From contig JAUCBJ010007033.1 in the NCBI GenBank assembly GCA_032718475.1, positions 1 through 34,851 on the forward strand: a stretch of DNA of 34,851 bases, in the 5' to 3' direction. Positions 7,390 to 30,290 of this stretch are shown here, piece after piece. The notes under the pieces are model-generated. The model had not been told where the DNA came from. It saw only the letters and a program-made list of their open reading frames with translations, and made no database searches. The DNA is from Nemertoderma westbladi (taxonomy: Eukaryota; Animalia; Xenacoelomorpha). The translations under genes and the position numbers were made by a program. Numbering within the stretch: position 1 is the first letter of the stretch; every line of letters starts with the position of its first letter.

Positions 7390-7881
7390 GACAAACATTA
7401 CGGAAGTCAGATGGTATGGAGGATCGAGAAAGTAGACGAAAAGATGAAGTTGGCTGAGACCGGAGAGAAGTTAACGATCTTCAGTCCGCTGTTCTCGTCA
7501 GCGCGTCGCGGATACAAACTAATCGCGAGTCTGTGTCTCAACGGTGACGGAAAGTACTGCGGACAATTCGTAGCGGTTTACGTGTACGTATGTAAAGGAG
7601 AGTACGACTCCATACTGAAATGGCCGTTCCAGAACCAAATCACAATTAAATTATTCGATCAGTCGGAGAATTCTAACAAAGCTGTTGTTAAAAAATTGAA
7701 TCCTGTCGATTTATTAGAAGAACACCAAAGCTGTTTCACAAAACCGCCAAGAGATAAAAATCCACCATTCGGTCTCATTGCGTTTATTCCTAAAGAAGAT
7801 TTCCAAGAAGGAACTTTTATTAAAGACAATACTATGTATATCAGTTTCAACATAGATACTGAAAATACTCCGTTTCTATAA
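7390..7881 (+). CDS. TRAF4: TRAF-family gene, terminal exon encoding the TRAF-C/MATH domain (TRAF4-like)
   Basis: aaacag|GAC AAA CAT; motifs VWRI, FSPLFSSARRGYKL, LNGDG, GEYDSILKWPF, LFDQ, FIKDNTMYI; stop TAA at 7879-7881. The TRAF4 subfamily call is inferred from the GYKLxxSxxLNGxG motif. Confidence 0.92.
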   Translation, partial: DKHYGSQMVWRIEKVDEKMKLAETGEKLTIFSPLFSSARRGYKLIASLCLNGDGKYCGQFVAVYVYVCKGEYDSILKWPFQNQITIKLFDQSENSNKAVVKKLNPVDLLEEHQSCFTKPPRDKNPPFGLIAFIPKEDFQEGTFIKDNTMYISFNIDTENTPFL

Positions 7882-7918: not shown

Positions 7919-9160
7919 TGTAATGCATTACGTAATGGTGTTATTGAAGATATACGCATTGTGTAATGGTGTTATTGAATGTACGCATTGTGTAATGGTG
8001 TTATTGAATGTACGCATTGTGTAATGGTGTTATTGAATGTACGCATTGTGTAATGGTGTTATTGAAGATATACGCATTGTGTAATGGTGTTAGTGAAGGT
8101 ATACGCGATGGTGTAATGGTGTTATTGAAGATATACGCATCGTGTAATGGTGTTAGTGAAGGTATACGCGATGGTGTAATGGTGTTATTGAAGATATACG
8201 CATTGTGTAATGGTGTTATTGAATGTACGCATTGTGTAATGGTGTTATTGAATGTACGCATTATGTAATGGTGTTATTGAATGTACGCATTGTGTAATGG
8301 TGTTATTGAAGATATACGCATTGTGTAATGGTGTTATTGAATGTACGCAATATGTAATGGTGTTATTGAATGTACACATTGTGTAATGGTGTTATTGAAT
8401 GTACGCATTATGTAATGGTGTTATTGGTGGAGTAATGCATGTGTAATGGTGCTATTGAAGGTATACGCGATGGTGTAATGGTGTTATTGAAGATATACGC
8501 ATTGTGTAATGGTGTTATTGAATGTACGCATTGTGTAATGGTGTTATTGAATGTACGCATTGTGTAATGGTGTTATTGAAGATATACGCATTGTGTAATG
8601 GTGTTAGTGAAGGTATACGCGATGGTGTAATGGTGTTATTGAAGATATACGCATTGTGTAATGGTGTTAGTGAAGGTATACGCGATGGTGTAATGGTGTT
8701 ATTGAAGATATACGCATTGTGTAATGGTGTTATTGAATGTACGCAATATGTAATGGTGTTTTTGAATGTACACATTGTGTAATGGTTTTATTGAATGTAC
8801 GCATTGTGTAATGGTGTTATTGGTGGAGTAATGCATGTGTAATGGTGCTATTGAAGGTATACACGATGGTGTAATGGTGTTATTGTTGATTGCATGTGTA
8901 ATGATGTTATTGGAGATATACGCATTGTGCAACGGTGTTAGTGAAGGTATACGCGATGGTGTAATGGTGTTATTGAAGATATACGCATTGTGCAACGGTG
9001 TTAGTGAAGGTATACGCGATGGTGTAATGATGTTATTGGAGATATACGCATTGTGCAATGGTGTTATTGAAGGTACGCATTGTGTAATGGTGTTATTGAA
9101 GGTATACGCGATTGTGTAATGGTGTTATTGGTGATGTAATGGATGTTGTATAATGGTGTC
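7919..9160 (+). repeat. Minisatellite with 29-32-bp units (TGTAATGGTGTTATTGAATGTACGCATTG and variants) directly after the TRAF stop codon
   Basis: Visible tandem array with recurring variant units. Confidence 0.95.
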
Positions 9161-9886: not shown

Positions 9887-10454
9887 GGTGGAAATTTGCC
9901 TGACAGCCAGATAGGCCTACAGCATTACCTACCGGTAGGCGGGGTATAGCTATTACTAACCATAGTAGCTAAATTATTAACATGTCTCCAAACGCCACCA
10001 TAAATATAAGCTAACTTATTTATAACATAATTTATGTCATTTTTACATTTATTTTATACAACAGCTAATATAATTTGTGCAGTTTCTATCACTTATAATG
10101 TATATGTACAATCATTTCGTAATGTTAAAATCTTGGAATAAAACTACATACGTTGCAAAGTACTTTACAGCGTTCTGATACTCGTGGCTTTATTTTTCAC
10201 TCACTCACTACGTTCGTTCGTGTAACAAAGCCACTCGGATCATCACACTGTAAAGTGCTACTTTACACACAAGTATGTCAGTAAATAGTTAACAACAATA
10301 TTTAAATCACTTTTTGCTTCGCCGACACCAAATAGCAGTGAGCCATCTAAGTAAAGGATCACTCAAACTCTACAACTGCGAGAATTTATAGAAAACTTTA
10401 AGGTCGAAAAAATATCATTCAATGGTTGTATTTTGGAATGAAAAATTGCATAGA

Positions 10455-10760
10455 TTGTGGGGCGAGCCACGAAGTGAGTGAAGCCTTAGTATAGGGGTAC
10501 CGGTACCATTTAACTAGTTGTCTGTCGTCGTGAATTTTTATCCCTAATAACTCGGTCATCCATTGATGAAATTAAACCAAACTTGGTACGTAAGTAGTCC
10601 GTCAAAGGTTGAGGAAGAATCGGAAGTTTAGTCAAAAAAGTCTGTCAGTCGGTACCGGTAGTTTCAGACTACCGAAATAAGTCGGTCAATCATTGTCATT
10701 GATGAAACTAAAACAAACTTGGTATGTATGTAGTCATATAAAATTTGGTAGAAATTACCT
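10455..10760 (+). mobile_element. Degenerate HINE/DINE-1-like fragment
   Basis: GCGAGCCACGAAGTG..GAAGCC, TGTCTGTC and a duplicated CATTGATGAAA..AAACTTGGTA..GTAGTC motif resemble this class of element. Ends are not defined. Confidence 0.35.
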
Positions 10761-11627
10761 ACGAACATTCTTTACACCTTTATTCAAAGTAAATTAATAA
10801 TAAACAACAACAATATAATATAGCACAATACTCGGAATACAGTGTGACGTGCTGCGCGAAGGCCCCATGGAAGTGTAATATTGTATTTCAAAGTCATTAA
10901 TATCATTATTATACATTTATAACAACGTATTTCTACTGTTTAAAAATATTAATAAAATTCATAACCAGTAAGGTTATGAGTAAGGGTCACTTAGTTTAGT
11001 TGAGTTGCATTAAGTCTGGCGACTTATTATCCCCCCCCCCCCCCCCCCCCCCCCTAGTTACCATTTAGGATGCATCGAACCCTCGCTAATGAAACTCCGG
11101 CAGCACCCCGGGTCTCGTACCACCCATGAATTAACCAAAGCGACAATAAGTTGACATAATGAAACAAGTTATTCCCTCGCTGCGCTCGTTCATTGCATTA
11201 AATACACTCGGGTCTCATAAAGCTGAAATAAGTGCAATAGAATAATGCAAAAATTTATTGTGCAGGTTTTTTTAATTTTGTTCTCAAAATGAGAAAGTTT
11301 TACAATTTTATAACGAATTCGAAACAACAAAATACGATTATATAAACAAACAAACAAGAGAAAAACCCAGGGGGGGGGGTGTTAAACCGAAGATTTATCT
11401 GGACGACGTAAATAAAGACCAAAAGAAAATAAATAAAGTCAAGAAAAAAACGTTTTTTTTTTCACTTTCATGATTATTGAAAGTCACTGAAAAACAAATA
11501 ATAGAAGATTACCATTCCATTTACAGACAAAAATACAACGACTGGGAGGATAAAAACTAATAATATCGTTGATATCAGCAGAAAAAAAAACGGATGAAGT
11601 GCAGCCCTATGGAGGGCTGCACGAGAA

Positions 11628-11740
11628 CTATATCTCCTTTTTACTTTCAGTTTCGACTTGCTCGGTTGCCGGTCGGTTCTCGGTGTCACCGCTAGATGGC
11701 GCATCGTCTTTCAAGAGTTTTCCAATTTCATCATATTTAA
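11628..11740 (-). CDS. PGRMC1: PGRMC/MAPR (membrane-associated progesterone receptor, cytochrome b5-like heme/steroid-binding), exon 4 (last)
   Basis: ttttcag|TT AAA TAT gives (F)KYDEIGKLLKDDAPSSGDTENRPATEQVETESKKEI*. Matches the KY.xVGKLLK motif. Confidence 0.9.
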
Positions 11741-11840
11741 CTGAAAAATAAACAAAATGAGCGAAAATAATGAAAATGAAGAAAATATAATTCACTAGAT
11801 TTACATCACTTGGTGGAACTGGTAACAATAAATAACTTAC

Positions 11841-11990
11841 ATCTAAAGTTATCTCTCCAATCGTTCATGGCTTCTCTGTCTGTGGCCGATAGATCAGTGA
11901 GGTCGTCCCAGGTGTCGCTCACTGCGTCTATATTCATGGTAGCCAGAGCCCTGGAGGCGTCATGTCCCGCTAGGCTACCGTAGGGACCAT
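11841..11990 (-). CDS. PGRMC1: PGRMC/MAPR exon 3
   Basis: ctgcag|AT GGT CCC TAC gives (D)GPYGSLAGHDASRALATMNIDAVSDTWDDLTDLSATDREAMNDWRDNFR; donor T|gtaagt. The heme-ligand Tyr of the GPY motif is present. Confidence 0.93.
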
Positions 11991-12127
11991 CTGCAGGAAT
12001 ATTTATCATTCAGTTACTATTTGGGTGTCAAACAAGTTACTAAAACATTTAATGAACATTGGTAATATTTCTATACCGGCCTTACTGTTAGTGGGAGCCC
12101 TGCATCACCCTGCGAACCTACACTAAC

Positions 12128-12303
12128 CTGGCCCGTAGAACCCCCTCCCTCGGGACACGTCGAACACAATGCCATCGACGGCGAACAGAATCCGGGGATT
12201 ACGAACTCCGTCGAATTCCCGCAGTTCCGACAACCGGAAGTCGCGTTTCTCCATCGGAGATAATATCAGTGGCCGACGACGGGCCTGTAGCTGTTGTTCT
12301 CGT
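12128..12303 (-). CDS. PGRMC1: PGRMC/MAPR exon 2
   Basis: Not in the ORF track. catcag|A CGA... gives [58 protein letters not shown]; donor G|gttagt. Closely parallels the PGRMC RDF..ELR.FDG...RIL....VFDV..G..FYGP segment. Confidence 0.93.
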
Positions 12304-12817
12304 CTGATGGGTCAATAAACATATATATTAATCTACTAGAGACTTGGTAGGGGTGTGTGCTGTGTAGTAGGTGTAACAATTTTAATGACTCGAGCTCTTT
12401 TAAACTCGGGAGGGAGAGAAGGCGGGCAAAAATTGAGAGACAATAAAATGCTACCGGTAGAGGAATATTTTGATTTTAAACAAGAGCAAACCGGATTTAT
12501 GTAGGGCCTAATTGACAACATTTTGTAAATTTTATATTTACACGATAATACCAAAAAGCCTTTTTCTTCATCGAAAACATAAAACAAATAAAACAAAGAG
12601 TTGATTGTAACGTAACGTTGGCGCAAACCATAAATAAAGCAGTAATTTAACCCTAACCCTAAGTCATGAGGCTCTAATCTAATAAATTTGTGGAATTTCG
12701 GACTTTTTGCTATTGGCCCGATGCGCCTATACCGGTCATGATGTCCAAAATTCCACAAACTTCCTCTAGATGGATAAGTAGGCCTATCCAGCTATCCCTG
12801 TATCCCCGTAATCTCAC

Positions 12818-12939
12818 CTTCTTCTGTAGAGCATATAAAATACAAGCAACAACCCGGCCAATATTATCACATTCAATGGAGCGAATATTCCTGTTCCCCA
12901 TGTAGAACCGTCATCGACTTCTTTCTTTTCATTATCCAT
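12818..12939 (-). CDS. PGRMC1: PGRMC/MAPR coding exon 1 (N-terminal transmembrane anchor)
   Basis: MDNEKKEVDDGSTWGTGIFAPLNVIILAGLLLVFYMLYRR; PLN plus hydrophobic helix typical of PGRMC; donor AG|gtgaga. The four exons total 561 nt (186 aa plus stop), in frame. Confidence 0.88.
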
Positions 12940-12940
12940 T

Positions 12941-14209
12941 TTCCACGAAGCTAAGGAAAATCAACTACTTTCGCTAAGAAAGATTTTCCTTAGCTGAGAT
13001 GGTCTATTCATAGTGGGCTATTTTACTTGTGTGGGGCAGATTTGTTTTTTTTTGGTCGGGGAAAAAACTAGCCTTTAAAAGTACCCTGAAATTTTGCATG
13101 TATATACTACTCATCAAGGCGCGTCGTGTGGGATGGGTCTCATATTCAGGAAAAATCTGGTTTCCATGGCAACGGACTTAGAAAAAAGTCTATGTATTTC
13201 AAGTCAATATTTGTAACTCTATTTGTAGGAAAACTATAATACATATAAACTTGGGGTTTCTCAACACAACTATAAGGTCCATAGCAGAGCCGATTGAGGT
13301 TAAATAGAAAATCCAGTTACCTTGGCAACCGGGCTAAACAGATGTTAAAATTTTTAAAATGTTAATTTGAAGCCTAAGGTTAAGGTGTGATGACTTGGGA
13401 CCAATCCCTACCCCCACTATATAACTTATTCTGCGTCCGAATTTGATTGTTCTATTTTGCAGTTACCTTGACAACCGCTGAAAACAGATGTTTTTATACG
13501 AAAATTATTCATTTGTACATAGACTTCACGATAAAATTTTACGAAACTAGGTATGTGTTATCTGGACCACTAGTTGGAACTTTTAGTGAAACTCAAAACA
13601 TTCCAGAAATATCTAGTTACCATGGTAACTGTAGTTTTTTTAAAGTTATATATCATTCAAGTCTATAATCATAACTCTATTTGGAGAAAAACTGTAATAT
13701 ATATAAACTTGGGGTTTTGCAACTCATCTATAAGGTCCATATACAAGCCGTTCGAAGTTAATTAGAAAATCCATTTACCATAGCAACAAGAGTAAACAGA
13801 TGTTAAAATTAATAAAATGATAATTTGAAGCACAATTTAATAGTATTATGACTTGGGACCAACACCTACCCCCACTATATGACTTATTCTGCATCCGAAT
13901 TACATTGTTCTATTTTTCAGTTTCCATGACAACCACTGCAAACAGATGCATTTTGATAGAAAATCTGTAATTTGGACATAAACTACAATATTTTCTGAAA
14001 CTCGATGTGTTATCTGAAAAACAATCTGGACTGAATCTTTTTTCAAAGGTAAAACCAACAGTTCCAGAGAACTCTAGTTTCCATGGGAATAGAAGTTATT
14101 TATTGGCAAATGCTACTAAACTAGGCTAAGCAACGAACCAAATTGTGGCCGTTTGTTTAATTTTCCTTAGCTTCGTGGTTGCATTTCCTTTAGGAAATGC
14201 CTTTCTAGT
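12941..14209 (+). mobile_element. Non-autonomous Helentron-associated element (HINE/DINE-1-like), copy 1
   Basis: 18-bp subterminal inverted repeats CCACGAAGCTAAGGAAAA (12943-12960) and TTTTCCTTAGCTTCGTGG (14161-14178). Also a partial IR near the 5' end, a 3' hairpin GCATTTCCT-TT-AGGAAATGC, end CTAGT, a T-rich insertion site, no TSD and internal degenerate tandem repeats. Confidence 0.8.
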
Positions 14210-14298
14210 ATTTTAGGCCTATTTAAAAAATTACTACGAATTGTAAATTTTAAATTACTACAAAACACTTTTGGTATTTTCTCATACAGCTGTACACT

Positions 14299-15995
14299 AT
14301 CCACGAAGCTAAGGAAAATCAACTACTTTCGCTAAGAAAGATTTTCCTTAGCTGAGATGGTCTATTCATAGTGGGCTATTTTACTTGTGTGAGGCAGATT
14401 TGGTTTTTTTTGGTCGGGGAAAAAACTAGCCTTTAAAAGTACCCTGAAATTTTGCATGTATATACTACTCGGCGAGGCGCATCTTTAGGGCCGGGTCTCA
14501 TATCCAGGAAAAATCTGGTTTCCATGGCAACGGACTTCAAAAAAAGTCTATGTATTTCAAGTCAATATTTATAACTCTATTTGTAGGAAAACTATAATAG
14601 ATATAAACTTGGGGATTCGCAACACAACTATAAGGTCCATAGCAGATCCGATTGAGGCTAAATAGAAAATCCAGTTACCTTGGCAACCGGGATAAACAGA
14701 TGTTAAAATTTATAAAATGTAAATTTGAGGCCTAAGGGCAAGGTGTTATGACTTGGGACCAACCCTTACCCCCACTCAGCCACTATATAACTTATTCTGC
14801 ATCCGAATTACATTGTTCTATTTTTTAGTTACCATGACAACCGCAGAAAACAGATGTTTTTATACAAAAATTATTCATTTGGACATAGACTTCGCGATAA
14901 AATTTTACAAAACTGGGTATGTGTTATCTGGACCACTAGTTGGAACTTTTAGTGAAACTTAAATTATTCCAGAAATTTAGTTACCATGGTACAGTCAGGA
15001 ACACTGGTCACAATATGTCCAATTTACAGCCAGAATGTGTCCGCGGAAAACGCTCTCAGAGTGAAATTTCTCCATAGAAAACAATGCTAAATTTCATTTG
15101 AAAACCGGCAGTGAAATTTTAACATTGGCATTCTAAAAATTATGCCATTAGAATCGCCATAAAATTCTGTATAAATTAATTTGAGAATTAGAATCTCATC
15201 ATTGGGATAACTATCATAATATTAAAAATGAAAATGTGCCCAGCTTCTGCTTTGAGTACTATTGGAGTTACAGCCAAAATATGTCCGGAAATATAATCGC
15301 AGCCTGTGAAGGACAAATAGTGGCTGCGCGGACACTTTCTGGCTGTAAATATGTGGACAATTTTTGGCTGAGCTTCAGCCAGAAAGTGACCAGTGTTCCT
15401 AACTGTGGTAACTGTAGTTTATTAAACTCTATATCATTCAAGTCTATATTGATAACTCTATTTGTAGCAAAACTGTAATATATATAAACTTGGGGTTTTG
15501 CAACTCATCTATAAGATCCATATCCAAGCCGTTTGAGGCTAATTAGAAAATACAGTTACCATAGCAACAAGTCTGAACAGATGTTAAAATTTATAAAATG
15601 ATAATTTGAAGTACAAGTTAATAGTATTATGACTTGGGACTAACCCCTACCCCCACTATATGACTTATTCTGCATCCGAATTACATTGTTCTATTTTTCA
15701 GTTTCCATGACAACCACTGCAAACAGATGCATTTTGATAGAAAATCGGTAATTTGGACATAAACTACAATATTTTCTGAAACTCAGTATATGTGTTATCT
15801 GAACCACAATCTGTACTGATTTTTTTTTCAAAGGTTAAAGCAACAGTTCCAGAGAACTCTAGTTTCCATGGGAATAGAAGTTAATTTATTGACAAATGCT
15901 ACTAAACGAGGCTAAGCAACGAACCAAAGTGTGGCCGTTTGTTTAATTTTCCTTAGCTTCGTGGTTGCATTTCCTTTAGGAAATGCCTTTCTCGT
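14299..15995 (+). mobile_element. HINE/DINE-1-like element, copy 2 (interrupted by a MITE)
   Basis: Highly similar to copy 1, with the same subTIRs and hairpin; ends CTCGT. Carries a 414-bp insertion at 14992-15405. Confidence 0.8.
14992..15405. mobile_element. MITE with CAG..CTG termini and 5-bp TSD (TGGTA); superfamily unassigned
   Basis: TIRs CAGTCAGGAACACTGGTCAC and GTGACCAGTGTTCCTAACTG; TGGTA at 14987-14991 and 15406-15410. The empty site GTTACCATGGTAAC is present in HINE copy 1. Confidence 0.92.
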
Positions 15996-16821
15996 AGAGG
16001 AGACCTACTACTGCTGTACTGTACTACAGTTTATTAACTCAGACCTAACATATAAATCCCTTCGATACTGACAGACTGATAGTTTAACGTGCTGAATCAG
16101 TCAGCATTCAGGCATTAGGCCTATACAGTTACTGAGTTCAATGACTGAATGATAGGTTCTCTTTATCTTGGCTTATTACCAGATTACCGGTCAGCCGGTC
16201 CAGTTAAGTTATTCTCTAAATTCTTATTACCGGTACCAATTCTTGAAGGAAGACAGATTATCCGATGATCAATATCGTTAACCTTCTATTATTCTTTTTG
16301 TCGGTAGGCTATTCATCAATCAGGCTGCCAGGAAGTCTGATGGCCTAGTTTAGATTAGACTCAAGGGGGACAAAATCTGCGCGAAGGCAGGAAGGGACAA
16401 TACAGCAATATCCGATATCTGCTACCGGTAGAAGATTTTTCCCACGGCCAACGGCTGCCCGGTCAAAATATGCGGTGGATAATTTCGCCATGTTCTGATG
16501 TTTGCAGGCTGGCAGGTATGATACGATATACTAACTTGAAGGGGGGGATTAACGTGTTTAGGGGCCTCCACAGTCCACATATAAGTAACAGACTGACAGA
16601 CAGACAGAGTAATACACTGATATACGTCAACACGTCATAAACCAATTGCTGAATTGAGGGAAAGGAGCAGGCAGGCAGGTTACAGAATACAGAGCAGTAG
16701 AGGCAGGCTTTTCTAACCAAAACAATAAACGGCCACTTAACCAATTGAGGGAAAGGAGCAGGTTACAGAACACTGCAAAAGTCCAGTCAGTACTAGGCCT
16801 AACTGCAGTTCCAGAGTTCAG

Positions 16822-18898
16822 CAGTTTAGAACACTGGCTGACTGATCACTTTCTGGCTGAAGCTCAGCCAAAAATTGTCCAAATATTTACAGCCAGAAAG
16901 TGTCCGTGCAGCCAATATTTGTCCTTCACAGGTTGCGATTATATTTCCGGGCATATCTGCATATTTTGGCTGTAAATCCACTAGGCCTAGTCCTCAAAGC
17001 AGAAGCTGCTAGGCTGGGCACATAATGTGACCATTTTTTATTTTTAATATTAATAATCTGATAATAGTTATCCCAACGCACCCCTGGTTTAAAAAGCTTT
17101 TAGTGTCATGAAAAATACCGTAAAATCTGTGACTGCCAGCTCTTATATAATGGTCTGCATAGCAAAAAAAAATATTTTTTAAAATATTTTATCGAGCTCC
17201 TTTTTTTAGCACCTAAAAATGTGTTCTAGAACATTTTTTCGGTGGTGTGCGGAGTTGTCGAATTTAGGTATCTTGAATACTGATTCCTTATATTTAGCCA
17301 TTATATGCGAAATTCGCTCAGGATTTCAAATCTGCAAACAGTTTCATCATATCTTGTTTAGTTTTCAAGATATCGTGAAAAATGTGATGCGCATCCAAAA
17401 AGTGCGTGTGGCGCCAAATTTTCAATTTTCAGTAATTTGAAATATTCACTAAAAAATGAAAATTATCGATTTCTATAGGTTTTCGGCGATGCTGAATGCA
17501 ATGGTAATATTTTCCAGAAGGCTGGGTGAATTGTCATACTACTTTTCATTGGGTGCTGAAATTTGGAAAATGAAAATCAAATTTTCAACCATTGGAAATT
17601 TTCAATATAAAGCTCTGATTTACGATTTATTAAGGTTCTGTGTGTTGCTGAATGTAACAGTAATGTTTTCTAAATAAGTGGATTACTGTGTAAACAATTT
17701 TTACTAAACTGTCTAAAAAATGTGATAAGATATAATTTAATTCCTAATTCATACGTTTGTATTATTACTGTCATCCTACTTATATATTCTAAAATATTTC
17801 AAAACACAATACTTCGATTAATTATCTTTATGTATTTTTATTAAACTTTTATGAATATTTATATAACTTTTACAAAGTTTTGTATAACTTTTAGAACTTT
17901 TCTGACTTTTTTCGGATTTTTCTATAACCTTTAGAAAATTTTATACCGCTTTTAATACATGTTTTGAAAATTATTATATAACTTTTGGTAATTTTTATAC
18001 AGCTTTTGCTAACGAATATGATGCTTAGGGAGACATTATATACATAGTAAACCAGTTATCCAGAAAATAATACTGTAGCATTCAAAACCATACAAAACCT
18101 AAAAAAATAGCTAATCATAGGTTTAAACGGGATATTACAAAACTTGTAAAATTTGTCATTTTTGTTTTTAAAATTTCAGCACCCAATGAAAAGTAGCACA
18201 AAAATTCACTCAGACTTTTGGAAAATATTACCATTGCATTCAGCATGGCAGAAAACCTATATAAATCGATAATTTTCATTTTTTAGTGACTATTTCAATT
18301 TACTGAAAATTGAAAATTTGGCGCCGCACGCACTTTTTGGGTGCGCATCACATTTTTCACGATATCTTGAAAACTAAACAAGATATGATGAAACTGTTTG
18401 CAGATTTGAAATCCTGAGCGAATTTCGCATATAATGGATAATATAAGGAATCAGTATTCAAGTTACCTAAATTCGACAACTCCGCACACCACCGAAAAAA
18501 TGTTCTAGAACACATTTTTACGTGTTAAAAAAAAGGAGCTCGATAAAATATTAAAAAAAATATTTTTTTTTGCTATGCAGACCATTATATAAGAGCTGGC
18601 AGTCACAGATTTTACGGTATTTTTCATGACACTAAAAGTTTTTAAAACCAGGGGTGAACGATGAGATTCTAATTTACAAATTAATTTATACAGACTGACA
18701 GAATTTTATGGGGATTCTAACTGTCTACTGGTCTAAGGGCGTAATTTTTAGAATGCCAATGTTAAAATTTCACTGCCGGTTTTCAAATGAAATTTAGCAT
18801 TGTTTTTCAATGGAGAAATTTCACTCTGAGAGCGTTTTCCGCGGACACATTCTGGCTGTAAATTGGACATATTGTGATGTGACCAGTGTTCCTGACTG
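16822..18898 (-). mobile_element. Second, inverted copy of the CAG..CTG MITE, split by a nested element and carrying many small insertions
   Basis: 16822-17078 and 18657-18898 align to the reverse complement of 14992-15405. Confidence 0.88.
17079..18656. mobile_element. Non-autonomous foldback DNA transposon with CAC..GTG ends, 4-bp TSD (AACG) and ~500-600-bp TIRs; Chapaev/CMC-like
   Basis: CACCCCTGGTTT...AAACCAGGGGTG; AACG at 17075-17078 and 18657-18660. The arms are near-identical for ~500 bp. Superfamily is inferred from termini and TSD length only. Confidence 0.88.
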
Positions 18899-19584
18899 AA
18901 TGCACGTACAGTACTGGTACAGTACCAGTGGAGGTCCTGAAACACGTTAGTCCTACTTCAGCAGTTCAGTACCGGTACTTGCAGTAATCAATCACCGACA
19001 ATGCTGCAATGGCAGAACAGCAGAATGGAATGGCAGAATGGACTAGTTCAGCTTCAGGTTGTCAGATGTTAGGGTTAGCCTTAGCTGGTTACTGGGTTAG
19101 CGGCACCAGACCAGCACCCAGCAGACAGCGGGAATAATGCAGTACATGCAGTTTTTGCAGTACAGCAGTAGGCTATTACTACGGTACTGCTGTACTCTGG
19201 TACTGTACTAGAACATAGACAGATAGAGTAAGGTGATATCATCAAATCAGAATAGTCAGTGATTTTTTATGTCCTTTTATTTGACTTTTTTTGTCCTTTT
19301 TTTTACGAATTATGCATAATGACTTTTGTTGTCCTTTTAATGACTTTTATTGTCCTTTTAATGACTTTTATGTATGTATTTCTTCAAACTGTCAGACTGC
19401 TGATTTCTGGACTGTCAGACAGTGATTTCACCATGGCTGTGCCAAAACATTCCATGATTCCATGATTTATAGACTATGAGATAGATTTCCATATGCGCCT
19501 GTGGTAAAAAGACTCTATATTTAATAGTTTGTGGTTGTTGTCGATAATCGATTACGACATGACGTAGCAAAACACTCATTTTAT

Positions 19585-20377
19585 AGCCCAAAACAATTAC
19601 CAATTGATGGAAAGGAGCAGGTTAAGGCCGAGTTTTCTAACCAAAACAATAAACAGTCACTTTACCAAATCAGGGAAAGGAGCAGGTTACAGAGACGGGA
19701 TTTTCTAACCAAAACAATAAACGATCACTTAACTAATTGAGGGAAAGGAGCAGGTTACAGAGGCGGGATTTTCTAACCAAAACAATAAACGATCACTTAA
19801 CTTATTGAGGGAAAGGAGCAGGTTACAGAGGCGGGATTTTCTAACCAAAACAATAAACGATCATTTAACTAATTGAGGGAAAGGGACAGGTTACAGAGGC
19901 GGGATTTTCTAACCAAAACAATAAACGATCACTTAACTTATTGAGGGAAAGGAGCAGGTTACAGAGGCGGGATTTTCTAACCAAAACAATAAACGATCAT
20001 TTAACTAATTGAGGGAAAGGGACAGGTTACAGAGGCGGAATTTTCTAACCAAAACAATAAACGATCACTTAACTAATTGAGGGAAAGGAGCAGGTTACAG
20101 AGGCGGGATTTTCTAACCAAAACAATAAACGATCATTTAACTAATTGAGGGAAAGGGGCAGGTTACAGAGGCGGGCCTTTCTAACCAAAACAATAAACGG
20201 TCACTTTACCAATTCAGGGAAAGGAGCAGGTTACAGAGGCGGGATTTTCTAACCAAAACAATAAACGATCATTTAACTAATTGAGGGAAAAGGGCAGGTT
20301 ACAGAGGCGGGATTTTCTAACCAAAACAATAAACGATCATTTAACTAATTGAGAGAAAGGAGCAGGTTGCAGAGACG
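19585..20377 (+). repeat. 68-bp tandem repeat, about 11-12 copies
   Basis: Unit AATTGAGGGAAAGGAGCAGGTTACAGAGGCGGGATTTTCTAACCAAAACAATAAACGATCACTTAACT. About two further degenerate units lie at ~16638-16770. Confidence 0.95.
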
Positions 20378-20590
20378 ATAAAACTACAGTAATAGGCCTA
20401 AATTATGTGAAAGGTATATCCACATTTTCCACAATCCTGCAATCCAGTTTGGCCTATCAATTATTTAAAATTTATTAGCACAACCGGTAGGCCTACCATT
20501 ACCGTATTTAAATGGTAGGCTACACAGTAGGCCTATATCAGTACCGGTGCCGGTACTAAAATACAGAAATACCTGCTTTATACCTACATC

Positions 20591-20851
20591 TACGGTGGCT
20601 GAAAGCGGCCAAACAATATTAATTAAGCGTTTTTTTTTTTTAATTTCAACCCGGGTTGAAAATAATATCAACCCGGGTTGAAAATAATATCAACCCGGGT
20701 TGAAAATAATATCAACCCGGGTTGAAAATAATATCAACCCGGGTTGAAAATAATATCAACCCGGGTTGATATTACTGTATTTTCAACCCGGGTTGAAATT
20801 TAAAAAAAAAAACGCTTAATTAATATTGTTTGGCCGCTTTCAGCCACCGTA
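20591..20851. mobile_element. MITE with TACGG..CCGTA termini and 6-bp TSD (TACATC), IS3EU-like, with internal 22-bp repeats
   Basis: TACATC at 20585-20590 and 20852-20857; ~70-bp TIRs; seven copies of the palindrome TCAACCCGGGTTGA. Confidence 0.85.
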
Positions 20852-22025
20852 TACATCTGTACATACAAATATACAATACGCAGCAAATTAGTGCTATATA
20901 TACTAATACCGGTACTGATAGCCTGAGAGAACAGCAGTAGAGAAACCGGTAGCATGGAACCTAACATTAGACTTTTGGAGGACATAAAAAATAAAAAAAA
21001 AGGACAAAAAAAGGATTTATAAACGGACAATAAAAATTATTGCGATTCATGAATTCAATGTTAAAACAGATTTGAATTTACCGCCAAAATATAGGTGGTA
21101 GATCTGATCTGCCAAACTTCAGCCCTTCGGGTATATCTTTTGCGTAGAGGTATAGCCTACATAGAGGCTTCATGTAGGTATGTGTAGCCTACATGTAGAT
21201 GCACGTGTAGGGTGAATGTAGGTAGGTGTAGTCCCATAGATATTAATGTAATTTATGTGTCAACTTGCAGTAACGTGATACACGGTCGTCAATCAGGATG
21301 TATGGCAATAATCTCTGATCTCCACGGTACAATACGGTACATCAACATGCAGACCTGTCTGCTGTCAGACAACAGGTTTTACTGCATACTGCAGTACTGT
21401 ATAAATATCAAACATCGCGTTCTGATTATACTAAAGTCCCTTACTCGTCATAAATATTATGCCCTAATAAATTTGAGTATGCTAACGCCACGAAAGGCAT
21501 TGTTCCATTAGATTAACTCGTTCTGATTTATATGTTTATTGAGTAAGAGTAACCTAAACAAGAATAACAGCCATCATCGCGGGGACTATAGTCTACCAGA
21601 AACCCTGACCCCCCTCTGCCCCTCTTTATCTATTTATCAACCATACATCCATGGGACTTGAACAGTACTTCAGCATTGAAATGTTTTGGACGTTTTGTTT
21701 TGAAAGTAAAAATATAGAAGTCTGGAAGTTTTGTTTGTTTTAATTTTTCAGGCAGTCACATTCCACCAACCAGCAACAGTCCCATCCCTTCCCACTATCC
21801 CGCGGACCACCACACTGTTTCATTATAAAGTATTCCCATCTCGATTATGGGAATTAATCAGTAATCCGATGGGATTCAAATCCCATCTCGAAGTAACAGC
21901 AAAACAATAACACGAAAAGTCAATAGCTTTACAGTTATATTTGATTGCATTGAAAGTTAATAGAAAGAAGAAGTTAAATTGCATATCCATTAAAATATCA
22001 TGAAATTGATACGGCAGTTTAGTAG

Positions 22026-22027
<2 letters not shown>

Positions 22028-22056
<29 letters not shown>

Positions 22057-22845
22057 TTTATAAAGCGCCTTTCTAAGCACTATTTCAAGGCGCTGTGTAG
22101 TGTATGTGTTGGTATGTACTGCGTGTACGTAGGTATTTTCTATAAAAACTGGCTAAAGAACACTAAAAACATAAGTAAAAAAAAACACAATCAAGTAAAA
22201 AGTTAGAACTATTTTAAAAAATTGCTTCAGCAATATTCCTGTACATAATAGTGAGTTTTCAGTTTTTCTTTAAAAATACCAAGGGTACTGGCCAGGCGTA
22301 TGTCTTTAGGTAAGGAATTCCAAATGCGAGGTGCCGCAACAGAGAACGCGCGCCTTCCATAGCTCTCAAGGTTGTATCGGGGTACAACCAATAATCCCTC
22401 ACCGCCCGAACGTAAGTCCCTCCCGGGTGTATATCGCTTGAGCAGTTCGCAGAGATAGCCCGGCGCGGTACCGTTCCAGCACTTGTATGACAACATAGCT
22501 AATTTATATTCAATACGCCTATTAATTGGGAGCCAGTGGAGGCGTTTCAGTACTGGGGTTATGTGCTCGCGCTTTCTAATACCTTCTAACATTCGCGCTG
22601 CTGAGTTCTGTACATATTGTAATTTCTTAATGTATTTATCAGGTAAACCATAGTAGAGTGAATTATTGTTGTCCAATTTATTTGTTATAAATGCATGTAT
22701 TAATATTTCCAATTCACATCTAGATAAATATCGCTTTATTTTAGAAAGGTTGCGTAGATGGAAGAAGGCGTCTCTAACTACGGTTGATATCTGATTTTTG
22801 AATGTTAGGTGAGAGTCAAAGAGGAAGCCAATGTTACGAGCATTG
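22028..22845 (-). mobile_element. 5'-truncated L2-clade LINE (C-terminus of ORF2, 3' stem-loop, (ATT)n tail)
   Basis: ARNIGFLFDSHLTF, LIHAFITNKLD..NSLYYGLP, LQYVQNSAAR, HITPVLKRLHWLP, RAFSVAAPRIWNSLP. The 3' end on the minus strand is AGCGCCTTGA..AAGGCGCTTTATAAATATTATT... Confidence 0.92.
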
Positions 22846-22985
22846 AAACGGCCACAGCAAGATTTATAAAATGAAAAATAAGTAAAATCAGCACAGCACA
22901 CAATATTATCAATATAGACATTGAAGACAATTTAATAAACAAATACTATAAAAAAATATCTACTAACAATCAATACATGATATAT

Positions 22986-23202
22986 CTCTGAGAGTGGAAA
23001 GGATATCCACCATTTTACGTCTAGGATGGATGGAGTGGAAAGGAGTTCCACCATTCTACCTCTAGGATGGATGGAGTGGAAAGGATTTCCATCATTCTAC
23101 CTCTAGGATGGATGGAGTGGAAAGGATTTCCACCATTCTACCTTTAGGATGGATGGAGTGGAAAGGATTTCCACCATTTTACCTCTAGGATGGATGGAGT
23201 GG
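22986..23202 (+). repeat. 41-bp minisatellite (about 5 copies) flanked by a 14-bp direct repeat
   Basis: Unit GAGTGGAAAGGATTTCCACCATTCTACCTCTAGGATGGATG; AATACATGATATAT at 22972-22985 and 23203-23216. Confidence 0.9.
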
Positions 23203-23884
23203 AATACATGATATATATAATATATATAATATATAGGCCTATACATCAGCGACTACCATCGCCACTCTGGTTCAATCAGTCAGTCCGGTATCATTGTTAG
23301 CGTTTTGTTGAATTACCCACTCATCCTCAGACCCTCATGGACACCGACGACGAGCTCTAACCGTAACCGTTAGTCGATTCCTCCTTGACTGGAAACATCA
23401 GGCTGTCAGGTTCGGGCCGTTCGGCCCATACAAAGTCATTAGCCTCCATGCCTGAACCCGCAGGATCATAAGATCTACAGTATGTATCGGTATATCGTTC
23501 AGTCGTTTTTTCCTTTGTCAGTACTGTAGTATTGATAGGCTCCGTCTCGTGGGTATTCAGGGGACCCCCATTCGACGTATTCGCATCTCCTCCTGGTTGT
23601 TTCGGGTACCACCGCCCGCCATATGCGCATCTCTTCGTGGTTGTTCCGGGTACCGCCCCCGTTCGCCGCATTCGCATCTCATCGAGGAAGTTCGGGTCCG
23701 GGTACCCCGTGTAGGCCTATTCATTCATCATTGTTGTTTTTAAAGACCTACCTACATTCACCCTACACGTGCATCTACATGTAGGCTACACATACCTACA
23801 TGTAGCCTCTATGTAGGCTATACCTCTACGCAAAAGATATACCCGATATACGATATATATATATACGATATATATACGATATGA

Positions 23885-24790
23885 GTTGATAGTAAGTTAT
23901 ATTTTGCAAATCACATTGATTTAATAACTAAAAAGTGCTATAAAGTAATTAATTGTTTATTTAGGTGTTTTTCTACTAACGACTGTGAAGCTATTTTATT
24001 TGCCTATAAAGTGTATGCAAGGCCGATTTTAGAATATGGTAGTGCAATATGGAACCCTTTTTGTAATTCAAAACCTTTTCTTGGCCTAACAGACAAGCTT
24101 GAGTCGGTCCAAAGATATTTTACCCGTAGGTTATTCCACCGGTGCTATTTAGATACTGATGCTTGTTACCTAAGAAGGCTAAAAATTTTGAAATTACAAT
24201 CACTAGAACTTAGACGAGTTCATATTGACCTAATTACTGTTTTTAAAATACTCAACGGTTTTATTTCATTAGAATCTAATAATTTATTTGTAAATGTAAA
24301 CTCATCTTCAATAAGACTGAGGGGGCACCCTTACAAATTGCAGCAAGGACATTGCAGAACTGTTGCGGTGCAGAACTCATTTACAAATCGTGTTGTGCCT
24401 GTTTGGAACAATCTACCTTTCGTTGCAGTGACTGCCCCCTCAGTTGAATTGTTCAAACGCCATATTTATGTGTGCGATTTTAATAATTGGATTAAATTTG
24501 ACCGCAATTTGTAACTATGCCAATTTCTAATTATTTTCTATTTTTCATATCATTAGTTCTATCTGAGTTCAACTCTTTTTAGCGACCTACACTTTTATTT
24601 TAACATGTAATAATATTTTAGCGTATTTTAATTTCGTTTTTAATCTTATTTTAATATGGTGCCATAGTATAAGTCGTTTTGTTTTATTCTCTGTTCAACT
24701 TTCTCCTGTTTTATTTTATTATGTGCAGTTTTATTTGTACGCTTCTATGACAGCGGTGTCTCCACCCAAATAATATAATAATAATAATAA
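23885..24790 (+). mobile_element. 5'-truncated CR1-clade LINE (ORF2 C-terminus 23885-24514, 3' UTR, ATA tail)
   Basis: Open frame VDSKLYFANHID...YKVYARPILEYGSAIWNP...LESVQRYFTR...LELRR..DL...LRGH.YKL...FTNRVVPVWNNLP. The 3' boundary is placed at the (ATA)n run and is approximate. Confidence 0.88.
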
Positions 24791-25118
24791 CCCCAGCCCT
24801 TCCCTTTCCAGTACAAATTACATGTCTTTCAATAATTTGAACCCTATGGAGCAGGGTGAGGGTGGCACCTTTTAGGGACTTGTATACCGGTACTGTACCG
24901 GTAGCTTTGTATCCAGGAAGGTGGGGTCTGCCAGGTAGGCCTACTGCTGACACTGTTGTATCAGGCTGCAGGGCTGTACTGCTGTACTTCAGTACTTGTC
25001 TGTAAGATTTAGTGTGACGATCTACGGTACAGATCTACAGCATTTCTGTCGTGACTCGTCAGCTCGTGACCGTCACGTCATGTAATGCTGAGGCTGACAC
25101 TTATACTGCTGTACTGAC

Positions 25119-25685
25119 ATGGAGGACGATACTGACATGGAGGACGATGCGATTGTTCAAGATGCCTTGCAAGTAATCTTCGGATTGGGCGGCGAAACGG
25201 CCCATAAGCGATTGGAATTTGAGTTGCCCCCCAACCGACCGGATTCCCCGTCTACCGGCACCCCCGGGGAGGATGTGTTGCCTCGGTTCTGCTCGGCGAA
25301 AGAAAACAATAATGATGAAACCAAAGCAACGGACCCCGGGTCAGTAAAATGTTGTCCCCCACAGGAGGTCTCCGCTACGACTACGATAAGCTGTCGTCCC
25401 CCTATCGAACTTCCCCCCTCTAGTAAACTCTCTATATCCTTACACAACGTCGTCTCCACATTCAGCTGCCGTTGCCACCTCAACCTGCGTCGCATAGCGA
25501 CCGAGGCCACCAACGTGGAGTACCGCCCCGAGATGGGTCGTGTAATAATGCGTCTCAAACAGCCGAGAACTACGGCGCATTTAGTGAGTTCCGGGAAGAT
25601 CACTTGTACCGGGGCCGTATCGGAAGATGGTGCTAGGCGAGGGGCCCGGAAAGTCGCCGTTCTTCTAAAACGGTTGGGCTTCAAG
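25119..25685 (+). CDS. TBPL1: TBP-like factor (TRF2/TLF), coding exon 1
   Basis: ISLHNVVSTFSCRCHLNLRRIA..NVEY...VIMRLKQPRTTA..SSGKITCTGA.SE..ARR.ARK.A..LKRLGFK (first TBP repeat, TRF2 type); donor AAG|gtaagt, phase 0. Confidence 0.93.
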
Positions 25686-26009
25686 GTAAGTCTATCCTCC
25701 ACATCTGACCTCCATCTGTCCGAAGTGTCAGATCATATGGCAGCCATATTACTGTATTACAGTATTATGGCTGTATGGCACTTACTGGATTAGGCCTATC
25801 TGATTATCAGATTCATTTATTATAGGAAGGGATCTAGGGGTCTTAACCTCGAATGATAAGTTCATTTTACCTAAAATAACTTATCTTTCAGTCTTTTATT
25901 GGCGCAATTGTAGGACTAATCCCATCACATGCGTACTTTTTAACCGGGAAGTGTACAAATTTAGGAATCGCGTAATTTATCTTGAAATTAATATCTCATA
26001 TCTCTCCAA

Positions 26010-26052
26010 ACCACGTACGCGTTTCGACCTTACTGGGTCTCATCAGCGTGGT
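26010..26052 (-). ncRNA. Minimal type-I hammerhead ribozyme (minus-strand copy)
   Basis: Exact reverse complement of 26470-26512. Its upstream B box is mutated (GGTTCTAATCC); the A box at 26098-26108 is intact. Confidence 0.85.
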
Positions 26053-26413
26053 GTCGGATTAGAACCTGGGACCTCGATGTGGAAGCCGAGACTACAACCA
26101 CTAGGCCACAGGTTCTTGAGATATGGAGTATTAATTTCAAAGCCAGCTGACATTTTATTAGCCCCTGATTTTTTATTATTGATAGTAACAATGTGTTGGC
26201 AAGCTGTATTTTTCGAAGATAAGTTATTTTCGGTAAAATGAACTTATCATTCGAGGTTAAGACCCCTAGATCCCTTCCTATAATAAATGTATAATAACAA
26301 ACACCTCGAAAAATACAGCTTGCCAACACATTGTTACTATCAATAATAAAAAATCAGGGGCTAATAAAATGGCAGCTGGCTTTGAAATTAATACTCCATA
26401 TCTCAAGAACCTG

Positions 26414-26466
26414 TGGCCTAGTGGTTGTAGTCTCGGCTTCCACCTCGAGGTCCCAGGTTCGAATCC
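26414..26466 (+). promoter_or_regulatory. tRNA-like internal Pol III promoter (A box and B box)
   Basis: A box TGGCCTAGTGG at 26414-26424 and B box GGTTCGAATCC at 26456-26466, with tRNA-like spacing. There is no 3' acceptor strand, so this is not a tRNA gene. Confidence 0.8.
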
Positions 26467-26469
26467 GAC

Positions 26470-26512
26470 ACCACGCTGATGAGACCCAGTAAGGTCGAAA
26501 CGCGTACGTGGT
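26470..26512 (+). ncRNA. Minimal type-I hammerhead ribozyme
   Basis: Stem I ACCACG/CGTGGT; core CTGATGA (26476-26482); stem II GACC-cagtaa-GGTC; GAAA (26497-26500); palindromic mini stem III ACGCGT; cleavage triplet GUA, cut predicted after 26506. Confidence 0.88.
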
Positions 26513-27210
26513 TTGGAGAGATATGAGATATTAATTTCAAGATAAATTACGCGATTCCGAAATTTGTACACTTCCCGGTTAAAAAGTACGCATGTGATGG
26601 GATTAGTCCTACAATTGTGCCAATAAAAGATAAGTTATTTTCGGTAAAATAAACTTCAGAACTTATCATTCGAGGTAAAGACCCCTAGATCCCTTCCTAT
26701 AATAAATGTATAATAACAAACACCTCGAAAAATACAGCTTGCCAACACATTGTTACTATCAGATTCATGGCACAGTCTGACAGTTTAAACTCACCCCTGC
26801 ATTTCTCGATTTTCACTCTGTGCAAATTCATCCCCGGTTAAATTTCCTTACCGGTAGTATATTCTCACTCCCTGTGTATTTTTTTGTATCTTCTACAGTA
26901 TATACTTATACAAATCTCAAGCATGTGTTTGTCTGGGTGCTAGAGGTATCTGTGGTCTTAACTGTATTGGATTAACTTAACTTATATCGAATTTAGTTAA
27001 TATTGAAATTAAAATATCATGGGGGTGAGAATACACCGAGGGGGGTTAAATTTCACTAAAAAATCACCCAGAGTAGTTTCACCCCCGGTTAAAATGCCCT
27101 AGTGAATTTTAAGGGGGTGGAAATTATCTGTTACACCTACACCGGCCCCAGGGGCATATAATATATGCTTTATTTATTTGCTTTATTTCTTTTTTTATTT
27201 ACTTTTTAAG

Positions 27211-27516
27211 ATCCGCTTTATCAATTATCGCGTTGTTAACGTTCTCGCGAGCGTCGCCATGCCTTTTGGCGTGAAACTCGCTCCGTTCACCACCGCCAAT
27301 CGCACCATCGCGCGGTACGAGCCGGAACTCCATCCCGGGGTCACAGTCACTCTCAAACAGCCGGACTGCCGCGCAACACTCAAGGTCTTCTCTACCGGAA
27401 GTGTGACAGTGACGTCACGTCGTGTGAGTGACATCGGAGTCGCGGTCGAGAGAGTCTACCCGTTACTGGCGTTACATCGGAGAGACAAACAGTTGGAATC
27501 TAATTTGGATAGATAA
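27211..27516 (+). CDS. TBPL1: TBP-like factor (TRF2/TLF), coding exon 2 (last)
   Basis: tttttaag|ATC CGC gives IRFINYRVVNVLASVAMPFGVKL...YEPELHPGVT...ATLKVFSTGSVTVT. VVNVLA, YEPELHP and FSTGS distinguish TRF2 from TBP. Total length 290 aa. Confidence 0.93.
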   Translation: MRFINYRVVNVLASVAMPFGVKLAPFTTANRTIARYEPELHPGVTVTLKQPDCRATLKVFSTGSVTVTSRRVSDIGVAVERVYPLLALHRRDKQLESNLDR

Positions 27517-27521
27517 GGGCC

Positions 27522-30290
27522 GTGTCTGTATGTTTGTGTGTCTGTATGTTTGTGTGTCTGTTTGTTTGTGTGACTGAATGTTTGTTTTTGTCACTGGATG
27601 TTTGTTTTTGTGACTGAATGTTTGTTTTTGTGACTGAATGTTTGTTTTTGTGACTGAATGTTTGTTTTTGTGACTGAATGTTTGTTTGTGTGTCTGAATG
27701 TTTGTTTGTGTGTCTGAATGTTTGTTTTTGTGACTGAATGTTTGTTTTTGTGACTGAATGTTTGTTTGTGTGTCTGAATGTTTGTTTTTGTGACTGAATG
27801 TTTGTTTTTGTGACTGAATGTTTGTTTTTGTGACTGAATGTTTGTTTGAGTGACTGAATGTTTCTTTATTTGTTTGTGTAGGCGTATCGGTCTGTTTAAG
27901 TGCTCGAATTATTGTGTGTCTGTATGTTTGTTTGTGTGTCTGTGTGTTTGTTTACTTGTTTGTATGTCTGTAAGTTTGTTTGTGAGTCTGTGTGTTTGTT
28001 TACTTGTTTGTATGTCTGTAAGTTTGTTTGTGTGTCTGTATGTTTGTTTGTGTGTCTGTATGTTTGTGTGTGTGTGTCTGTCTGTTTAAGTGCTCGAATT
28101 ATTGTGTGTCTGTATGGTTGTATGTTTGTTTGTGTGTCTGTATGTTTGTTTGTGTGTCTGTATGTTTGATTGTGTGACTGAATGTTTGTTTTGTGTGTCT
28201 GTATGTTTGTTTGTGTGTCTGTATGTTTGTTTGTGTGTATTTATGTGTGTCTGTATGTGTGTTTGTGTGTCTGAATGTTTGTTTGTGTGTCTGTATGTTT
28301 GTTTGTGTGTCTGTATGTTTGCTTGTGTGTCTGTATGTTTGCTTGTGTGTCTGAATGTTTGTTTGTGTGTATGTATGTGTGTTTGTGTGTCTGTATGTGT
28401 GTTTGTGTTTCTGAATGTTTGCTTGTGTGTCTGTATGTTTGCTTGTGTGTCTGTATGTTTGTTTGTGTGTCTGTATGTGTGTTTGTGTGTCTGAATGTTT
28501 GTTTGTGTGTCTGTATGTTTGTTTGTGTGTCTGTATGTTTGTTTGTGTGTATGTATGTGTGTTTGTGTGTCTGTATGTGTGTTTGTGTTTCTGAATGTTT
28601 GTTTGTATGTCTGTATGTTTGTTTGTGTGTCTGTATGTTTGCTTGTGTGTCTGTATGTTTGCTTGTGTGTCTGAATGTTTGTTTGTGTTGTGTGTCTGAA
28701 TGTTTGTTTGTGTGTCTGTATGTTTGTTTGTGTGTCTGTATGTTTGCTTGTGTGTCTGTATGTTTGCTTGTGTGTCTGTATGTTTGTTTGTGTGTCTGAA
28801 TGTTTGTTTGTGTGTCTGTATGTTTGTTTGTGTGTCTGTATGTTTGCTTGTGTGTCTGTATGTTTGCTTGTGTGTCTGTATGTGTGTTTGTGTGTCTGAA
28901 TGTTTGTTTGTGTGTCTGTATGTTTGTTTGTGTGTCTGTATGTTTGCTTGTGTGTCTGTATGTTTGCTTGTGTGTCTGTATGTTTGTTTGTGTGTCTGAA
29001 TGTTTGTTTGTGTGTCTGTATGTTTGTTTGTGTGTCTGTATGTTTGCTTGTGTGTCTGTATGTTTGCTTGTGTGTCTGTATGTTTGTTTGTGTGTCTGAA
29101 TGTTTGTTTGTGTGTCTGTATGTTTGCTTGTGTGTCTGTATGTTTGCTTGTGTGTCTGAATGTTTGTTTGTGTGTCTGAATGTTTGTTTGTGTGTCTGTA
29201 TGTTTGTTTGTGTGTCTGTATGTTTGTTTGTGTGTCTGTATGTTTGTTTGTGTGTCTGAATGTTTGTTTGTGTGTCTGTATGTTTGTTTGTGTGTCTGTA
29301 TGTTTGTTTGTGTGTCTGAATGTTTGTTTGTGTGTCTGTATGTTTGTTTGTGTGTCTGTATGTTTGTTTGAGTGACTGAATGTTTGTTTGTGTGTCTGTA
29401 TGTTTGTTTGTGTGTCTGTATGTTTGTTTGTGTGTCTGAATGTTTGTTTGTGTGTCTGAATGTTTGTTTGTGTGTCTGTATGTTTGTTTGTGTGTCTGTA
29501 TGTTTGTTTGTATGTCTGAATGTTTGTTTGTGTGTCTGTATGTTTGTTTGTGTGTATGTATGTGTGTTTGTGTATCTGTATGTTTGTTTGTGTGTCTGAA
29601 TGTTTGTTTGTGTGTCTGTATGTTTGTTTGTGTGTCTGTATGTTTGTTTGAGTGACTGAATGTTTGTTTGTGTGTCTGTATGTTTGTTTGTGTGTCTGTA
29701 TGTTTGTTTGAGTGACTGAATGTTTGTTTGTGTGTCTGTATGTTTGTTTGTGTGTCTGTATGTTTGTTTGTGTGTCTGAATGTTTGTTTGTGTGTCTGAA
29801 TGTTTGTTTGTGTGTCTGTATGTTTGTTTGTGTGTATGTATGTGTGTTTGTGTATCTGTATGTTTGTTTGTGTGTCTGAATGTTTGTTTGTGTGTCTGTA
29901 TGTTTGTTTGTGTGTCTGTATGTTTTTTCGAGTGACTGAATGTTTGTTTGTGTGTCTGAATGTTTGTTTGTGTGTCTGAATGTTTGTTTGTGTGTCTGAA
30001 TGTTTGTTTGTGTGTCTGAATGTTTGTTTGTGTGTCTGAATGTTTGTTTGTGTGTCTGAATGTTTGTTTGTGTGTGTGTGTGTGTGTCTGTATGTTTGTT
30101 TGAGTGACTGAATGTTTGTTTGAGTGTCTGAATGTTTGTTTGTGTGTCTGTATGTTTGCTTGTGTGTCTGTATGTTTGTTTGTGTGTCTGTATGTTTGTT
30201 TGTGTCTGAATGTTTGTTTACTTGTTTGTGTGTCTGTATGTTTGTTTGTGTGTCTGTATGTTTGTTTGTTTGTCTTTATCTCTGTCTGTG
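27522..30290 (+). repeat. 20-bp GT-rich minisatellite (TGTTTGTTTGTGTGTCTGWA), about 135 units, starting ~5 bp after the TBPL1 stop
   Basis: Visible array. The first downstream AATAAA is at 30339-30344. Confidence 0.97.

Follow-up and report, generated by a model that had tools for sequence, protein, structure and literature searches.

Five-base duplications around CAG or CTG in a Nemertoderma westbladi contig, probable excision footprints of a cut-and-paste transposon family

A contig of the xenacoelomorph Nemertoderma westbladi (JAUCBJ010007033.1, GenBank assembly GCA_032718475.1) carries dozens of 13-base motifs in which five bases are followed by the triplet CAG or CTG and then by a second copy of the same five bases. 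We analyzed positions 1 to 34,851 of its forward strand (this whole stretch of 34,851 nucleotides is hereafter called the window). A previous sequence-only reading had proposed that these motifs, which we refer to as scars, consist of a 5-bp target duplication and three terminal nucleotides of a transposon. Wherever a scar could be compared with a related sequence it proved to be an 8-base insertion, and a resident miniature inverted-repeat transposable element (MITE, 14992-15405) has both CAG...CTG ends and a 5-bp duplication that match the proposal. It is therefore probable that the 8-base insertions are excision footprints of a cut-and-paste family which generates 5-bp duplications and has CAG...CTG ends, and that this MITE is a resident member of the family.

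To count the scars, we recorded perfect N5-C(A/T)G-N5 motifs in the 23,327 bases left after seven tandem arrays had been masked, and used 300 local shuffles preserving dinucleotide content as the null model. The masked window contained 49 motifs (25 with CAG and 24 with CTG; 25 and 26, respectively, in the whole window without masking), whereas the shuffles averaged 0.75 and never exceeded 4. Within 16000-19430, the interval highlighted by the sequence-only reading, there were 27 motifs against a shuffle mean of 0.15. Each of the seven motifs which that reading had named between 16067 and 16398 was recovered in its place, and the "about eight more" it had placed at 18950-19230 corresponded to 8 perfect motifs (18957-19215). 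The preference for CAG and CTG over other 3-mer spacers was also evident, as the remaining spacers were found 1-6 times each in the masked window, with the exception of CCC and GGG, which exceeded this range owing to homopolymer runs. Approximately 7% of all CAG/CTG triplets in the unmasked window formed the centre of a perfect motif. Scars with one mismatch around CWG (where W is A or T) numbered 33 versus ~10 expected by chance in a rough hand estimate, but this was not above the level of AT-rich spacers and these sequences were not used.

The geometry of the motif was exact. When the centre was CAG or CTG, repeats of five bases occurred 25 and 24 times, those of four bases 4 and 3 times and those of six bases 0 and 1 times, respectively, and extension of the repeat by a sixth base was at chance level (8/49 and 11/49). 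These numbers bear on the idea that no transposon was involved and that the insertions are either 8-base tandem duplications produced by replication slippage or templated insertions arising in end joining by polymerase theta. Short direct repeats are indeed present on either side of the insertions, and the sequence ACAGA-CTG-ACAGA-CAG-ACAGA resembles a period-8 repeat. However, slippage predicts that all 8 bases are duplicated, whereas the repeat ends at five, and neither process accounts for the constant CWG centre (49 cases versus 1-6 for other spacers), for the exclusive 5 + 3 geometry, or for a resident element with the same ends and the same duplication. We consider such an origin very improbable. 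The target 5-mers showed a preference at two positions, with A or C at position 2 in 36 of the 49 scars (p = 3e-5) and G or T at position 4 in 39 of them (p = 8e-4), and their G+C content was 38% (93/245 bases) versus 36% in the window. This preference (NMNKN) is weak and symmetric and fits selection of the site by a transposase dimer.

The direction of change could be determined for 11 of the 49 perfect scars (10 by means of a paralogue and one by means of an allele), and in all 11 the scar had gained 8 bases, consistent with insertion rather than deletion as had been claimed. The ten scars absent from paralogous copies were those at 14772, 16644, 16667, 16807, 16952, 17053, 18690, 18723, 25884 and 26652. 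For example, the 8 bases of CCACT-CAG-CCACT (14772-14784) were missing in three of three paralogous copies (13412, 13870 and 15651), and those of AACTT-CAG-AACTT (26652-26664) in two of two. The AATTG-CTG and GCAGG-CAG motifs of the 68-bp repeat unit at 16630, which the sequence-only reading had regarded as insertions, were missing in 12 of 12 other units. A scarred paralogue was found for none of the 49 scars; because no scar is common to paralogues, every one of them must be younger than the duplications.

For the comparison of alleles, contigs from public runs of the same organism were aligned to the window. Two of these runs (X2 and X3) represent one sample, and another (X1) matched the window sequence over 16010-16590 and is possibly the window's own source. 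In the X2/X3 contig, the 8 bases of ACTGA-CAG-ACTGA (16067-16079) were missing. It was the sole contig of this sample to cover 16010-16286, there was no other difference in 277 bases, and the X2/X3 sample retained all other scars in 16010-16443. The scar at 16067 is an insertion/absence polymorphism between individuals, which provides one case of the 8-base polymorphism that would be expected of such scars. With regard to other X2/X3 allelic contigs, 14 gap letters and no substitutions were seen over 18865-19283, 18 gap letters and 2 substitutions over 16421-16659, and 26 gap letters and 8 substitutions over 18928-19286. Our guess is that the 14 gap letters are 8 + 6, i.e., one CWG scar and one TA-CCGG scar of the kind described below.

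An element with the 5-bp duplication and the CAG...CTG ends predicted from the scars is present in the window. It is an intact 414-bp MITE on the forward strand (14992-15405, or 14987-15410 including the TGGTA target duplication on both sides). Its first bases are CAGTCAGGAACACTGGTCAC and its last ones the complement of CAGTTAGGAACACTGGTCAC, and the two ends are complementary at 19 of 20 positions. They read CAGT...ACTG, with CAGTC and CAGTT as the 5-base ends (fifth base C or T), and the terminus can be written as CAGT(C/T)AGGAACACTGG. Several subterminal repeats with a CAGCCAGAA-type motif were also found. A paralogous empty site of this MITE, which has a single TGGTA, is located at 13617-13634 on the same strand. 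Contigs from four runs omit 419 bases at the MITE (5 bases being ambiguous); these contigs have high depth and are probably for the most part paralogous copies of the host repeat and not alleles. Together, the demonstrated insertions and the matching resident element agree with the composition of 5-bp duplication plus three terminal nucleotides that the sequence-only reading had put forward. Two further candidates were rejected. A putative MITE remnant of 22 bases with an internal deletion (16786-16805) was too short to call, and a single metagenome match to the 20-base terminal repeat was located in a bacterial contig whose gene content is ordinary for bacteria and was discarded as chance.

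A second copy of the MITE was found in reverse orientation (minus strand, relative to 14992-15405) and is split into a left arm (16806-17078) and a right arm (18657-18898). The left arm contains the scars CATAT-CTG (16952) and ATAAT-CTG (17053), and its terminal repeat is broken by AGTTC-CAG nested inside CAGTT-CAG as well as by an imperfect ACTGG-CTG-ACTGA. The right arm, whose terminus is intact (18879-18898), contains ACAGA-CTG and also GTCTA-CTG nested inside TCTAA-CTG. When compared with the MITE at 14992-15405, CATAT-CTG, ATAAT-CTG, ACAGA-CTG and the nested scars were 8-base insertions; all of these but the nested pair of the left arm had been noted in the sequence-only reading. Between the arms is a foldback element of 1578 bases (17079-18656) that is unrelated to the MITE. 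A 4-base duplication, AACG, flanks this foldback, which has CACCCCTGG...CCAGGGGTG as its ends and arms of ~500 nt that are 93-97% complementary to each other. This element has no CWG scars of its own and is outside the scar process. Some X2/X3 contigs, which represent alleles or paralogues, join 16738 or 16770 to 18928 and thereby omit the entire second MITE copy.

The scars could be explained by the following series of steps. The element would integrate via a 5-base stagger, and upon excision the non-transferred strand would be cut 3 bases inside either end, such that a 3' CAG overhang is kept on both flanks. The overhangs would then pair C:G and G:C, with a mismatch at the central A:A, and end joining and mismatch repair would yield CAG or CTG, in about equal proportions, between the target copies. 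The observed 25:24 ratio of CAG to CTG fits the resolution of such a central mismatch. Through recurrent rounds of integration and excision, about one-fifth of the local sequence in a small number of hot intervals would have been written. Sleeping Beauty and Tc1 are known to follow this route at TA sites. In a passage of PMC6943129, the canonical Sleeping Beauty footprints, TACAGTA and TACTGTA, are described as the element's terminal 3 bp with a copy of the duplication on either side, formed from 3' overhangs by end joining.

Several observations weigh against an origin by excision. No transposase domains were detected among the 9 + 97 open reading frames (ORFs) of the window. Just one element in the window was found to combine matching ends with a 5-bp duplication that is perfect. 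The flanks of the second MITE copy are unmatched (AACTG on the left versus AATGC on the right). The polymorphism at 16067 depends on one other sample, given that X2 and X3 are the same and that X1 matches the window. In addition, the contigs compared revealed no site at which one allele had the element and another the scar, and thus excision is inferred and not observed. Finally, scars of this kind are not what the known superfamilies with 5-bp duplications would be expected to produce. Searches of full-text literature, in a collection that covers neither Repbase Reports nor most subscription journals, gave no description of a footprint combining a 5-base duplication with CWG.

The scars were strongly clustered. 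All 49 were located within 12701-27521 (3.6 per kb), whereas the other 9.6 kb outside the masked arrays had none (binomial 5e-12), in line with the localized distribution that had been proposed. The scar-free flanks of the window consist mostly of satellite and other tandem arrays. The left scar field (16009-16805) adjoins the second MITE copy and takes in two scarred 68-bp repeat units (about 16630-16770). It has 15 perfect scars in 16000-16830 (18 per kb), and iterative removal revealed 18 events which correspond to 144 of 841 bases (17%). The right scar field (18899-19232) adjoins the same copy, with 8 perfect scars (23 per kb in 18899-19240) and 10 events by iterative removal, i.e., 80 of 342 bases (23%). 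A cluster of five scars (24964-25116, 28 per kb in 24940-25120) is upstream of, and abuts, the first exon of a TBP-like gene, and a cluster of four (25747-25896, 23 per kb in 25730-25900) is located just past the part of the first TBP-like ORF that matches the TBP domain; we infer that the latter lies in the first intron of this gene. It includes a double scar at the same target, TATTA-CTG-TATTA-CAG-TATTA, and also TCTTT-CAG-TCTTT, which lies in an inverted repeat whose other arm lacks it.

Certain target 5-mers were hit twice, namely ACAGA (16588/16596), TATTA (25747/25755) and, as detected by peeling, AATGG (19029), and 16 of the 49 targets contain CAG or CTG. These observations suggest that insertions often fall in or next to older scars. 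It is possible that either local hopping or regional accessibility is behind the clustering. If it were local hopping of elements at or near the second MITE copy, and not a targeting of open chromatin or promoters, then the direct flanking of this copy by the two fields (16009-16805 and 18899-19232), the reuse of the same 5-base target at three places and the many insertions in or beside older scars would all be accounted for. However, at least 8 scars have accumulated in the second copy itself, a terminal repeat of which is broken, so that other donors would be needed. Moreover, no MITE of this family is present beside the clusters at 24964-25116 and 25747-25896, and only one scar occurs within 600 bases of the intact MITE. 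Local hopping of this kind seems somewhat unlikely. No relation was found between scar density and the observed/expected ratio of CpG (Spearman -0.15, p = 0.53, 21 one-kb bins), and the scar fields are not CpG islands (observed/expected 0.27-0.69). As for the suggestion in the sequence-only reading that scars build regulatory DNA, this is speculation; what we observed is where two clusters lie, one at the 5' end of the TBP-like gene and the other in what is presumably its first intron.

Judged from the motifs themselves, the scars appear to be Tc1-like in chemistry, the DNA features agree with hAT5, and the hAT5 group and a Tc1-related lineage may be regarded as the two leading candidates for the element. 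It is possible, if rather doubtful, that the elements belong to the hAT5 group and have a donor cut unlike that of the studied hATs, for example an initial nick placed 3 bases into the element, which leaves CAG on the flank. By definition, hAT5 elements make 5-bp duplications (Kapitonov and Jurka 2007, as quoted in a passage of PMC12730594), and such a duplication is found here. According to one figure legend, hAT termini invariably have G in third place (PMC1131882, Figure S7), and the MITE has CAG at both ends. It also has multiple subterminal repeats. On the other hand, footprints of hAT elements are characterized in a section of PMC3499496 as small, variable, flank-complementary insertions and deletions that originate from flank hairpins, whereas what the scars retain of the element is always three bases, CWG, irrespective of the flank. 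No hAT transposase was found among the 106 ORFs of the window. A further difference concerns the hAT terminal pattern YARNG, in which the fifth base is G, as the fifth terminal base of the MITE is C or T.

It is unlikely, though well worth considering, that the elements represent a Tc1/mariner-related lineage which has the 3-base staggered donor cut and the CAGT ends, and in which integration occurs with a 5-base rather than a 2-base stagger. Apart from the length of the duplication, the scar is the canonical footprint of Sleeping Beauty, and the C(A/T)G triplets (25 + 24) correspond to the terminal 2-4 bases that are located between duplications in the definition given in PMC6943129. Both CAG and CTG forms occur, as in Sleeping Beauty and other Tc1-like elements, and the MITE ends in CAGT...ACTG. 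In the unmasked window, TA accounted for 20 of 59 N2-CWG-N2 motifs (34%), compared with a TA share of 10.7% with other spacers, and this excess makes Tc1-like activity in the genome plausible. However, Tc1/mariner elements duplicate TA, whereas the duplication here is five bases of almost any sequence, and no DDE/D transposase was present among the 106 ORFs. Searches of full-text literature gave no Tc1/mariner member with a 5-bp duplication, and we know of none.

Two other groups were considered and rejected. Transib elements also generate 5-bp duplications, but in the description available from PMC1131882 the first three terminal bases are a perfectly conserved CAC and GC-rich targets are preferred, whereas the ends here are CAG and the targets have 38% G+C. 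In the Ginger2/TDD group, a 5-bp duplication occurs in TDD-4/5 only, and the termini are given as TGTNR in a passage of PMC2836005, which is different from CAGTC/CAGTT. We tentatively suggest that the scars point to a new lineage that would combine a Tc1-type 3-base donor cut with a 5-base integration, whether as a hairpin-free, hAT5-like group or as a new superfamily. This lineage would have been active recently, with scars still segregating, and in hot intervals its scars would outpace substitutions and make up about one-fifth of the sequence.

Other short words in the window also look like scars. We found TAGGCCTA 13 times and TACCGGTA 11 times in 9912-26856, versus 0.39 and 0.46 in shuffles (examples of the two are at 16116, 16794, 16982, 16228, 16423 and 18970), and TA was present on both sides of 13 of 16 AGGCCT and 11 of 18 ACCGGT. 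When the two MITE copies are compared, the TAGGCCTA at 16982 proves to be an insertion of 6 bases. The words resemble the scars that two families of TA-targeting transposons, with GG...CC and CC...GG ends, would leave. In addition, some TA-CAG-TA or TA-CTG-TA words are located inside 5-base scars. The sequence at 24885-24903 is TACCGGTA-CTG-TACCGGTA and can be read as nested TA-CCGG-TA, TA-CTG-TA and TA-CCGG-TA, and at 18906-18924 there is GTACAGTA-CTG-GTACAGTA, an 8-base repeat about CTG which is outside the 5-base rule.

Among other repeats, a small element at 20591-20851 has 74-nt inverted ends (TACGGTGG...CCACCGTA), TACATC on both flanks and, in its interior, a palindromic tandem repeat of 22 bases (20641-20769), and a CWG scar directly adjoins it on the right (20852). 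Nested inverted duplications (25811-26711), whose arms of 325, 77 and 53 nt are 96-98% complementary, are present in what is presumably the TBP-like gene's first intron, with CWG scars in two junction regions. Inverted repeats of 101 nt (21127-21227 and 23746-23846, 99% complementary) enclose 2.5 kb, and a reverse transcriptase fragment (22227-22931, minus strand) is located between them; the window contains fragments of reverse transcriptases of the non-LTR (non-long terminal repeat) type. About one third of the window is occupied by four satellite arrays, with periods of 34 bases (2106-6052), 29/63 bases (7925-9130), 20 bases (27523-30293) and 20 bases (31549-34032), together with three smaller tandem arrays. 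With respect to genes, a TRAF-type MATH exon was found at 7357-7881, and the TBP-like gene has two exons (25098-25793 and 27106-27516). The closest named relative of its protein is from a bivalve (48% identity), no closer named matches were obtained with the MATH exon or with a reverse transcriptase fragment, and a search of a protein atlas gave the TBP family as the sole match. An Rfam search and a tRNA scan of the window gave no matches.

That DNA transposition leaves excision footprints behind is well known, but to our knowledge these have seldom been seen as the dominant local mutation process. What appears to be unreported, in the full-text literature covered, is the 5 + 3 + 5 geometry. 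The 13-base signature is searchable, and it records dozens of insertion-excision cycles within a few hundred bases, including nested ones and one that segregates. Such scars offer a natural read-out of the germline landing sites of a transposon family, and they let the cleavage chemistry of an uncharacterized transposase be inferred from genome sequence alone. The input of short indels from transposition seems to outweigh point mutation locally, with 0-1 substitutions against 8-14 indel letters in allelic contigs. If the partner enzyme is hAT5-like, the scars would argue for a mode of donor cleavage that is undescribed in hAT elements.

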